Positions 4,526-5,428 of a stretch of DNA of 64,000 nucleotides are shown here, piece after piece. Numbering within the stretch: the stretch's first letter is position 1; each line of letters begins with the position of its first letter. The translations under genes and the position numbers were made by a program. The stretch spans positions 648,679 to 712,678 of the forward strand of contig JBFWJC010000001.1 of assembly GCA_050253415.1 (NCBI GenBank). The letters run 5' to 3'. The stretch comes from Pedobacter sp. Its GTDB lineage: Bacteria; Desulfobacterota; Desulfuromonadia; Desulfuromonadales; Syntrophotaleaceae. Below the pieces are notes generated by a model that saw only the letters and a program-made list of their open reading frames with translations, was not told the DNA's origin and searched no databases.

Positions 4526-5428
4526 ATGGAAAAAAAACAGGGGTGTAAAGGCGGCAAACCCTCGGTGTTTGCTTCTGGTGGTACCGAAGAAAGCCGGGAT
4601 TGGCTGGCAGACGATCTGCATGTGTATGTGGAACCGTGGCGTTCGCGTTTTGAGTGGCCGGATGGCTACCCGCGGCGTATCAAGGTTTCTGATGAACTGG
4701 TGGAATGGGATGCCGACTATCCCGATTACGATCCGGCCTATTATGTCGCTCCTGAGGTCATTGAGAATGACCGAACCCTTAAGCCTGGTGGTTGGGCCGA
4801 TCCGGAAGATATCGCGGCGGCCGGCGAATTGCCAAAAGAAAGTTTTGAGGGTCCCATCCGTTTTGATGCCATGGGGCGGCCTTTGAATCCGCGGGGACGC
4901 ACCGGTATTGCGGGCCGCGGACTGCTTGGCAAGTGGGGTCCCAATTATGCCGCCGATCCTATTGTGACACGGTTGAATGCACAATTTGGAGACGTTGAGA
5001 TGCTGGCTATTCAACGTCGGGACAATGGTCAATGGGCGATTCCCGGAGGCATGGTTGATGCCGGGGAGGAAGTCAGTCGCACGCTGGCGCGTGAATTGTC
5101 CGAAGAAACCGGCGTCAGCCTCGATATGAGTCGCGGTCGGCTGATCTATCGCGGGTATGTTGATGATCCGCGTAATACCGACAATGCCTGGATTGAAACT
5201 ACGGTTCGGCATCTGCACCTGGATACCGAAGAAGCTGCCAGCTTGGAACCTCAAGCCGGGAGCGACGCGCGTACGGTTAATTGGTTGCCGCTCACCGAAC
5301 GCAGTTTGCAGAAACTCTATGCAGGCCATGGGTATTTTGTGGTTTCCGCCCTGGCGCAGTTGCTTCGGGATGAACCGGATGTGCTGCCGAAAAAAATGCT
5401 GGCACAGTTGCGCAGTTTTTATAGGTAA
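4526..5428 (+). CDS. Nudix hydrolase, NUDT9-like ADP-ribose pyrophosphatase
   Basis: Nudix box [24 protein letters not shown]; NUDT9-type motifs [29 protein letters not shown] and [18 protein letters not shown]. Confidence 0.9.
   Translation: [300 protein letters not shown]

Follow-up and report, generated by a model that had tools for sequence, protein, structure and literature searches.

The gene at positions 4526..5428 on the + strand of the window, the 64,000-nucleotide stretch of DNA analysed here, encodes a bacterial protein whose resemblance to human NUDT9 and to the NUDT9-H domain of TRPM2 channels is far above chance and extends over its full length. Its sequence and modelled structure make an active stand-alone ADP-ribose pyrophosphatase the most likely identity of this protein. 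We consider it about 80% probable that it is a catalytically competent stand-alone enzyme of the NUDT9 family that clears or recycles free ADP-ribose. In the ORF list the gene has an ATG start and encodes 300 aa followed by a stop codon. The reading frame stands alone, with stop codons on either side and its own ribosome-binding site, a Shine-Dalgarno-like AGGGAGA at 4511-4517 (+ strand), 8 nt 5' of the ATG. The window's own genome contains no second copy of the gene.

The predicted architecture is a NUDT9_N cap at the N-terminus followed by a Nudix core. The cap domain (residues ~44-135; 4655..4930, + strand) aligns with chain residues 12-105 of human NUDT9, and the Nudix-fold catalytic core (residues ~136-285; 4931..5380, + strand) was delimited from the NUDT9 alignment and from the Pfam NUDIX family PF00293, which matched residues 158-271 with E 5.2e-15. 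Residues 1-43 (4526..4654, + strand) form a clade-specific N-terminal extension that is conserved among the 300-aa relatives, and its first 20 residues are predicted to be disordered (pLDDT <50). In genomes of the window's own family, f1, matches mostly began at query residue 1 (at 20-23 in four genomes), whereas in families f27 and f28 they began at residues 30-39.

A phmmer search of PDB sequences gave human NUDT9 (1q33) as the top match, with E 1.3e-45 over query residues 44-273 and chain residues 12-271, followed by the Nematostella TRPM2 NUDT9-H domain (E 1.2e-42), a choanoflagellate TRPM2 chanzyme (E 3.2e-33) and human TRPM2 (E 1.2e-28). The top Nudix protein from outside NUDT9 reached E 4.5e-08, over the Nudix core only. 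The AlphaFold model of the protein had a mean pLDDT of 90.6 and a pTM of 0.86, and its top Foldseek match was again NUDT9 (1qvj; E 2.7e-24, TM 0.68/0.70, 37% identity over 289 columns). The cap domain lies inside this alignment to the 292-residue chain. The top non-NUDT9 match, 2fml, had a TM of 0.42/0.48 over 191 columns. A sequence-only reading of this DNA had proposed the full-length likeness and the N-terminal cap; both were borne out by the start of the alignment at query 44 and chain 12, by the coverage of the Foldseek match and by the annotation of the relatives, and the top match of the homology search was NUDT9, not an ordinary cap-less Nudix protein. The open reading frame and every peptide stretch quoted in that reading were also present as described, including an 11-residue stretch at 117-127, a 10-residue stretch at 213-222, GGMVDAGE (174-181), RELSEETGV (189-197), AGSDA (244-248) and LYAGH (264-268).

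We assigned NUDT9_N to the window protein through the human NUDT9 alignment, Foldseek and the precomputed PF25969 (NUDT9_N) annotation of its relatives, which was found together with PF00293 in 120/120 among the matches listed. The family of NUDT9_N plus NUDIX proteins is already defined in Pfam 38.1, with bacterial clusters, and close relatives of the window protein carry the JGI name ADP-ribose pyrophosphatase. The gene is therefore ordinary as such, and its correct class is already given by databases in current use.

The Nudix motif (GX5EX7REUXEEXGU) spans G175-V197 (5048..5116, + strand), and residues 189-194 within it form the box RELSEE. The Nudix consensus is REUXEE, the box of NUDT9 is REFGEE, the NUDT9 mutants RILGEE and REFGKK lack activity, and those invertebrate NUDT9-H domains whose box is canonical work as ADPRases (PMC6461439). 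RELSEE conforms to this consensus, in agreement with the earlier description of the box as canonical and presumably active. We examined conservation in an alignment of 79 rows (63 bacterial and 16 eukaryotic), in which each of the glutamates E190, E193 and E194 was kept in 61/63 bacterial and 16/16 eukaryotic rows. Human NUDT9 contacts ribose-5-phosphate through Asp172, Arg204, Glu234, Arg273, Tyr321 and His324 (PMC5473349), and all six contacts are kept in the window protein as D144, R164, E194, R216, Y265 and H268, a mapping to human numbering counted by hand along the printed phmmer alignment (chain index + 58). D144 and R164 were present in 79/79 rows, and R216 was present in 63/63 bacterial and 13/16 eukaryotic rows, the 13 being those that reach this position. 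By analogy with human NUDT9, the cleft that separates cap from core would bind the substrate, and E190, E193 and E194 would coordinate the metal. The most likely reaction would be the Mg2+-dependent conversion of free ADP-ribose to AMP and ribose-5-phosphate.

The human and bacterial proteins differ in several respects. Two segments of human NUDT9 are missing from the window protein: the first follows the 'PIVTR' strand and the second the Nudix box. The post-Nudix-box segment of the window protein is 14 aa long (residues 197-210), a length shared by 53/63 bacterial rows, whereas the eukaryotic form was 28-31 aa long in 13/13 complete rows (3 further eukaryotic rows were truncated here). The window protein thus lacks the eukaryote-type insertion of ~14-17 aa after the Nudix box. 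It also has no mitochondrial leader, in contrast to human NUDT9, a mitochondrial ADP-ribose pyrophosphatase (1Q33/1QVJ) with the same cap and core and a canonical box; instead it has its own N-terminal extension of ~40 aa and is encoded beside an orphan gene. Because of the absent insertion and the clade-specific extension, the kinetics, specificity or regulation of the bacterial form may differ from those of the eukaryotic one. Human NUDT9 is a monomer, and the sequence-only reading proposed this state for the window protein too. In the invertebrate TRPM2 chanzymes (Nematostella 6CO7; Salpingoeca 8SR7 and related entries), the NUDT9-H domain is homologous over cap and core, and these active channel-enzymes have a canonical Nudix box, as does the window protein; however, the window protein stands alone rather than forming the C-terminal domain of a channel, and it lacks the post-Nudix-box insertion.

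Two other groups of bacterial ADPR pyrophosphatases were compared with the window protein. The bifunctional NadM-Nudix NMNAT/ADPR pyrophosphatases (Synechocystis 2QJO, Francisella 2QJT/2R5W) have an active site structurally similar to that of NUDT9 (PMC5473349). They were the top NCBIfam matches, over the Nudix core only, and their PDB entries matched with E 1.5e-4 to 2.9e-3. Membership of this group was rejected, as the window protein scored 37.5 bits against the equivalog cut-off of 397 for model NF003786, by its Nudix part only, and has no NMNAT domain; conversely, NadM-Nudix proteins have no NUDT9_N cap. The NudF/YffH-type ADPRases (TIGR00052, E. coli ADPRase) are also built on a Nudix core and presumably catalyse the same reaction, but differ in their N-terminal domain, and NudF is a domain-swapped dimer. 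The distinction from this type drawn in the sequence-only reading stood, since TIGR00052 was not among the 25 NCBIfam families listed for the window protein at E <= 1 and the window protein has the NUDT9_N cap. Elsewhere in the window's genome, TIGR00052 matched at two other places, each below its cut-off.

The probable role of the enzyme would be the removal or recycling of free ADP-ribose from NAD-consuming enzymes, and the window's genome has one SIR2 (sirtuin) and four ADP_ribosyl_GH matches above family cut-offs. For the bacterium, the protein is probably just an ADP-ribose scavenger. Fusion partners elsewhere in the family also point to NAD and ADP-ribose chemistry. When 28 fused family representatives were scanned, 8 carried an NMNAT-like cytidylyltransferase domain, a further likeness to NadM-Nudix, 4 carried TCAD9 plus a kinase, 2 radical SAM plus HAD, and one each NADAR and inositol monophosphatase; 12 had NUDIX only. 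Our literature search turned up no publication on bacterial members of the NUDT9 family, enzyme assays included.

Directly upstream of the NUDT9-like gene, across a 45-nt gap, is an orphan gene of 116 aa, orf116 (4130..4480, + strand), preceded by a Shine-Dalgarno-like AAGGGAG at 4116..4122 (+ strand), 7 nt 5' of its ATG. The two genes may be co-transcribed. They adjoin in 11-12 of 401 genomes of the class, which are exactly the carriers in the window's own family: 11/12 genomes of this family have both orf116 and the extended NUDT9-like gene, and the twelfth has neither. In a collection of 5.8 billion proteins orf116 formed only 20 clusters, every named one of which was a hypothetical protein, and Pfam gave no match. 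Its predicted structure (pLDDT 84.9) found nothing in the PDB at E <= 0.001 with Foldseek, where the top hit was Maf-like with a TM of ~0.3; the wide VIA-align search reached a top Z of 3.7, and the protein atlas gave no usable match. The predicted complex of orf116 with the NUDT9-like protein scored 0.01 against a mark of 0.32, a score without controls that argues neither for nor against binding. By Pfam, the other neighbours are an EamA transporter, NrdD and a GGDEF-EAL protein, and nothing in this neighbourhood, orf116 included, is tied to NAD metabolism. The cassette is syntenic beside the housekeeping gene nrdD in 8 related loci; among 80 loci no neighbour was conserved across phyla, leaving clade-specific synteny only. 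A cluster of PAS histidine kinases beside the gene in 8 loci was dismissed as an artefact, since single-linkage clustering had joined these proteins through a common domain.

Sequence is not a reliable guide to substrate specificity within Nudix families. The protein might instead be a NUDT9-fold hydrolase of an ADP-ribose derivative or another ADP-sugar, such as 2'-phospho-ADPR, O-acetyl-ADPR, a breakdown product of a cyclic-ADPR isomer or a defence-system nucleotide signal, serving signal turnover and not housekeeping. The family's fusions to conflict-system modules (TCAD9 plus kinase in 4/28) and to NADAR (1/28) are consistent with such a substrate, as is the patchy spread of the family across phyla that is usual for accessory genes, while the N-terminal extension and the strictly co-occurring orf116 suggest lineage-specific regulation. 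However, the six residues that contact the unmodified ribose-5-phosphate moiety are all kept, no recognisable defence or signalling gene adjoins (by Pfam, EamA, NrdD and GGDEF-EAL) and the cassette sits stably beside nrdD, and we therefore regard this alternative as unlikely. A role in signal turnover, offered as speculation in the sequence-only reading, likewise drew no support from the neighbourhood. The strict co-occurrence and adjacency of orf116 and the extended form could be taken to indicate a non-catalytic ADP-ribose sensor acting through orf116. Vertebrate TRPM2 NUDT9-H (6PUO, 6MIX) provides a precedent, since this homologous domain shares the fold of the window protein and, with its degenerate box RILRQE, is inactive and acts purely as a ligand sensor (PMC6461439). 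The window protein differs at precisely this point: its box, RELSEE, is fully canonical whereas inactive forms begin with RIL, and the catalytic glutamates are kept in nearly all bacterial rows. Moreover, co-occurrence within one family amounts to a single evolutionary event and one co-loss, as kin are not independent. A sensor acting through orf116 thus appears very improbable, and catalysis by a stand-alone ADP-ribose pyrophosphatase remains our preferred explanation.

The sequence-only reading had left open whether the gene was a prokaryotic relative of the NUDT9/TRPM2 domain or a cross-domain transfer. At least 146 relatives were detected among 185,579 species genomes, with a sparse and patchy distribution in bacteria, and 37/401 genomes of the same class had the gene. 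This patchiness would be consistent with recent acquisition from a eukaryote by horizontal transfer, as would the identity to human NUDT9 (37%) and to eukaryotic-clade representatives (about 45-54%), which is high for proteins from different domains of life. However, the window protein is one of 17 Desulfuromonadia rows that form a clade (SH-aLRT 99), and the rows closest to this clade are also bacterial. All 16 eukaryotic rows lie elsewhere in the tree, set apart together by one weakly supported branch (SH-aLRT 76). The separation of this clade from the eukaryotes, together with the absence of the insertion, leaves recent transfer into the lineage unsupported: the window protein has the 14-aa bacterial segment and not the eukaryotic form. 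In addition, the gene is present at a syntenic position in 11/12 genomes of the family, and the GC content of its region (0.546) is unremarkable within the window. The gene was thus inherited within the Desulfuromonadia clade; the prokaryotic relative stood and recent transfer did not, and we consider the latter highly unlikely.

The tree is unrooted, because the cap domain cannot be aligned to any credible outgroup, and support along its backbone is low; the tree therefore gives no direction for an inter-domain transfer. A tentative and rather doubtful extension of these observations is that the insertion-less bacterial family was the source of eukaryotic NUDT9 through an ancient bacteria-to-eukaryote transfer, and therefore also of the ADP-ribose-sensing NUDT9-H of TRPM2. 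Bacteria would then have kept the minimal ancestral enzyme. They would also use it in settings not known from eukaryotes, namely the fusions to NMNAT-like, NADAR and TCAD9-kinase modules and, here, the pairing with the lineage-specific orf116, which may regulate the enzyme through its clade-specific N-terminal extension. NUDT9 and NUDT9-H hold a central place in ADP-ribose signalling by way of TRPM2, in which animals reuse the NUDT9 fold as the ligand sensor of an ion channel. Papers on TRPM evolution have traced the N-terminal SLOG/MHR1-2 region to bacteria (PMC13143021, PMC11479946). In passages from these two papers we found no mention of bacterial relatives of NUDT9-H: 'bacteria' referred to SLOG or the channel domain in 4/4 uses in PMC13143021, and had 0 occurrences in PMC11479946. 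The bacterial NUDT9 proteins could serve as an outgroup for reconstructing the path from enzyme to channel ligand sensor, and a compact form without the insertion, which should express readily, would be well suited as a model of the fold's catalytic cycle.

We also searched the sequences flanking the two genes. A conserved block of ~95 nt upstream of orf116 was found only in the four same-genus loci, its conservation reflecting close relatedness; the 12-mer core of the block is present at one site in the window, against 0.57 expected by chance. An Rfam scan of window positions 3700-5600 gave no match at E <= 1, and there is therefore no known riboswitch upstream. Promoter and terminator scans gave counts no higher than in shuffled controls. 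Right after the NUDT9-like stop codon, the consensus scan placed a GC-rich hairpin (5437..5464, + strand) of 11 pairs, 9 of them G-C, which is weakly suggestive of a terminator for the pair of genes, weakly because the region holds 5 such sites where chance alone would give 4.5. Among RNA data, only one run had a share of the locus, a small one (0.07), and it yielded a single 167-nt metatranscriptome contig that matched window positions 5020-5154 exactly, a weak hint that the NUDT9-like gene is expressed.

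The NUDT9-like gene is an ORF of 300 codons at window positions 4526-5428 on the + strand, with an ATG start and a Shine-Dalgarno-like AGGGAGA 8 nt upstream, and is present as a single copy in the window's genome. All peptide stretches reported in the sequence-only reading were found at the expected places in its product. The ORF list also contained a longer antisense ORF at 4367-5500, which we rejected as a real gene; since homology was entirely on the + strand, this ORF is a shadow of the NUDT9-like gene.

The sequence-only reading had proposed that this protein resembles human NUDT9 and the NUDT9-H domain of TRPM2 over its full length. 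A scan with a local copy of Pfam, which does not contain PF25969 (NUDT9_N of Pfam 38.1, according to the protein atlas), detected NUDIX alone (residues 158-271, E 5.2e-15), and NCBIfam gave Nudix-core matches alone, all below threshold, the best being a NadM-Nudix model, at 37.5 bits where the cut-off is 397. Searching the sequences of PDB chains identified human NUDT9 (1q33) as the top match (E 1.3e-45). This alignment spans residues 44-273 of the window protein and 12-271 of the chain, and therefore includes the N-terminal cap. The runners-up were NUDT9-H domains, from Nematostella TRPM2 (1.2e-42), from the choanoflagellate TRPM2 chanzyme (3.2e-33) and from human TRPM2 (1.2e-28), and ordinary Nudix proteins trailed from E 4.5e-08 on, covering the core alone. 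An AlphaFold model built from a 50-sequence alignment had a mean pLDDT of 90.6 and a pTM of 0.86, with pLDDT below 50 at residues 1-20 only. Foldseek matched this model best to NUDT9 1qvj (E 2.7e-24, TM 0.68/0.70, 289 columns, 37% identity), followed by twelve chanzyme entries and vertebrate TRPM2 entries; the first protein outside the NUDT9 group, 2fml, reached a TM of just 0.42/0.48 over 191 columns. Both the sequence match and the structural match confirmed that the full-length resemblance is real.

The Nudix motif of the window protein runs from G175 to V197 and has the box RELSEE inside it. The consensus of the Nudix box is REUXEE, and NUDT9 carries REFGEE; RILGEE and REFGKK mutants are inactive, as is the RILRQE of human TRPM2, and invertebrate NUDT9-H domains with a canonical box are active ADPRases (PMC6461439). 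In human NUDT9's crystal structure, ribose-5-phosphate is contacted by Asp172, Arg204, Glu234, Arg273, Tyr321 and His324 (PMC5473349). We mapped these residues by counting along the 1q33 alignment, where chain index + 58 gives the UniProt number; this offset correctly put Glu234 at the third glutamate of REFGEE. All six contacts are kept in the window protein, as D144, R164, E194, R216, Y265 and H268. Conservation was counted in an alignment of 79 rows (63 bacterial and 16 eukaryotic): D144 and R164 were present in 79/79 rows, R216 in 63/63 bacterial rows and in every eukaryotic row reaching that position (13), E190, E193 and E194 each in 61/63 bacterial and 16/16 eukaryotic rows, and H268 and Y265 in 62/63 and 56/63 bacterial rows, respectively. 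As the Nudix box is canonical and both the ribose-5-phosphate contacts and the catalytic glutamates are conserved, we infer that the window protein is probably an active ADP-ribose pyrophosphatase. The original observation was correct and its interpretation essentially so: the gene encodes an active-looking, stand-alone bacterial ADP-ribose pyrophosphatase of the NUDT9 family.

The gene had been suggested to be either a prokaryotic relative of the NUDT9/TRPM2 domain or a cross-domain transfer. In a FastTree phylogeny of 242 domains, the window protein fell inside a 55-row Desulfuromonadia clade (support 98), and a separate 32-row clade (support 97) lacked any named bacterium. Members of this second clade and their close relatives derive from animals and, via EukProt/MMETSP transcriptomes, from protists, and include a Lingula 'ADP-ribose pyrophosphatase, mitochondrial-like', trematode and fish proteins, and fragments with an ion-channel domain. 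We also built an unrooted tree of 79 rows (IQ-TREE quick mode, LG+G4), with Desulfuromonadia loci thinned to 16 and unlabelled representatives excluded. Here all 16 labelled eukaryotic rows lay on one side of one weakly supported branch (SH-aLRT 76), and 17 Desulfuromonadia rows formed a clade (SH-aLRT 99) neighboured by Patescibacteria and Chlamydiota rows (83), on an unresolved backbone with support below 80 on 31 of 76 inner branches. A discrete character, the length of the segment following the Nudix box (window residues 197-210), agreed with this grouping: it measures 14 aa in 53/63 bacterial rows and does not exceed 18 aa in 61/63, against 28-31 aa in 13 eukaryotic rows, the other three being truncated there. 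With its place in the Desulfuromonadia clade and its 14-aa segment, the gene fits a prokaryotic relative, and a recent import from a eukaryote is not supported. The tree is unrooted, and eukaryotes may have obtained the family from bacteria or the reverse. Two contigs labelled as bacterial encode longer segments, of 21 aa (L065:344-1096) and a eukaryote-like 28 aa (L079:4001-4675), and their rows adjoin eukaryotic rows in the IQ-TREE phylogeny with weak support; they may have been acquired from eukaryotes, may be intermediates or may reflect mis-binning.

We scanned 185,579 prokaryotic species, each represented by one genome, with a single motif pattern, [NT]TD[NH]AW[MI]E. This matched 163 stretches, of which at least 146 encode a NUDT9-like relative, a lower bound since members without the exact motif are missed. 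Eighty loci from this set came from Desulfuromonadales/Geobacteraceae, several Patescibacteria lineages, Chlamydiota, Planctomycetota, Bdellovibrionota, Bacteroidota, Myxococcota, Omnitrophota, Elusimicrobiota and one Leptospiraceae genome. The closest relative, labelled Pelobacter sp., is 97% identical to the window protein. Within the window's class the gene was present in 37/401 genomes: in 11/12 of the window's own family (f1, window's genome excluded), in 4/102 and 21/73 of two others (f27 and f28, respectively), and nowhere in the remaining families searched.

Of 7659 candidates from a word-indexed search of 5.8 billion proteins, 2934 matched at E <= 0.001. Among the matches listed, 120/120 had precomputed PF00293 and PF25969, and names, where given, were 'ADP-ribose pyrophosphatase' (JGI) or 'NUDIX domain-containing protein' (NCBI). 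Exhaustive HMMER against 1.84 billion cluster representatives yielded 5041 hits at E <= 0.001, 669 of them at E <= 1e-30. In the protein atlas, the nearest cluster bears the name 'NUDIX/NUDT9-like, N-terminal domain-containing protein'; it is 72% bacterial, and its commonest phylum is Thermodesulfobacteriota. The architecture of NUDT9_N plus NUDIX is therefore already catalogued and the window gene adds a member; it is ordinary insofar as Pfam and JGI already have a place for proteins of this kind. In the excerpts of main texts from the open-access literature and bioRxiv that we covered, including PMC5389931, PMC6461439, PMC5473349, PMC13143021 and PMC11479946, we came across no publication dealing with a bacterial NUDT9-type enzyme, and the covered portions of the TRPM2 evolution papers checked held no mention of bacterial relatives of NUDT9-H. 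Judging by these sources, bacterial members seem so far uncharacterised. This leaves the gene of moderate interest, as does the fact that, in the window's lineage, the enzyme is paired with an orphan protein and has an N-terminal extension of its own.

This extension of about 40 aa is carried by the f1 enzyme and absent from the f27 and f28 forms, whose matches begin at query residues 30-39. The orphan gene, orf116, lies directly 5' of the NUDT9-like gene at 4130-4480 (+), within a small ORF without Pfam match (4079-4480, +); the 116-aa protein was called from the start at 4130, which has AAGGGAG 7 nt upstream. It had no Pfam match, and structure searches with its model (pLDDT 84.9) recognised no fold relative. 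Just 20 clusters in the 5.8-billion-protein collection contain it, the named ones all 'hypothetical protein', and one of the clusters is from Syntrophotalea acetylenica. It occurred in 12/401 class genomes, exactly the f1 genomes with the NUDT9-like gene and directly adjacent every time; where it is missing, in a single f1 genome that is 99% complete, the NUDT9-like gene is missing too. These kin are non-independent, and what they show comes down to a single gain and a single co-loss. A scan in which site counts were at chance level found no + strand terminator-like site between the two genes. Given this strict adjacency and co-occurrence and the lack of an intervening site, they plausibly form one lineage-specific transcription unit. 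A GC-rich, terminator-like hairpin of 11 pairs (9 G-C), yet with a poor T tract, lies at 5437-5464 (+), 9 nt 3' of the NUDT9-like stop and before an EamA-family transporter gene (5512-6375). An anaerobic ribonucleotide reductase NrdD with ATP-cone follows at 6627-8615 (+); upstream, 1329-3788 (+) encodes an 819-aa GGDEF-EAL protein whose long N-terminal region has no Pfam match. The block of small ORF, NUDT9-like gene, EamA and NrdD was kept in 8/80 loci (L002-L008 and L034, with NrdD undetected in L007), all from the window's subclade. Geobacteraceae-type loci showed another, equally clade-specific synteny, and no neighbour recurred across phyla in the 80 loci. In related loci, the gene after NrdD is radical-SAM activase-like (L006:5009-5704). 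Intergenic sequence 5' of orf116 contains a strongly conserved block of about 95 nt (3991-4085) with the invariant runs TTTTGATTTGCATG and AATCCTGTTATTTTTTCAA; it was seen in four same-genus loci only, had no Rfam match, and may be a promoter or operator.

The window's genome has eight Nudix-domain matches, one SIR2 and four ADP-ribosylglycohydrolase-family genes, the last two indicating that sources of free ADP-ribose or derivatives exist. No protein in this genome exceeded the cut-off of TIGR00052 (NudF/YffH), a silence that means little because the model passes in just 2/14 control genomes. One 167-nt contig from a sediment metatranscriptome matches window 5020-5154 with no mismatch, at best a faint sign of expression.

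In other members of the family, the NUDT9-like domain occurs in fusions with modules related to NAD or ADP-ribose. Among 28 fused representatives scanned, eight had an NMNAT-like cytidylyltransferase, four TCAD9 plus a kinase, two radical SAM plus HAD, one NADAR and one inositol monophosphatase; 12 had NUDIX and nothing else. The NMNAT-like domain is C-terminal (P0147, P0158, P0160, P0174-P0176, P0205, P0218), and these proteins cluster with Bdellovibrionota loci L053 and L067. Unlike the known NadM-Nudix bifunctional enzymes, they have the reversed domain order and a different Nudix subtype. TCAD9 and APH-like kinases are modules described from NTP-dependent conflict systems, and their fusion to the NUDT9-like domain suggests a defence or signalling role for some members of the family. 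These fusions (P0165, P0200, P0204, P0261) cluster with L077 from Leptospiraceae and L078 from Desulfosudis. The remaining partners were NADAR in P0143, inositol monophosphatase in P0138, and radical SAM with HAD hydrolase in P0151 and P0155. Giant proteins were also seen: P0121 (2927 aa) has two NUDT9-like domains and P0123 (4008 aa) three, and a giant fusion in an Omnitrophota MAG (L044:2-6142, +; a 2046-aa ORF with an open 5' end) combines N-terminal WD40 repeats with a NUDT9-like Nudix domain at residues ~1444-1562.
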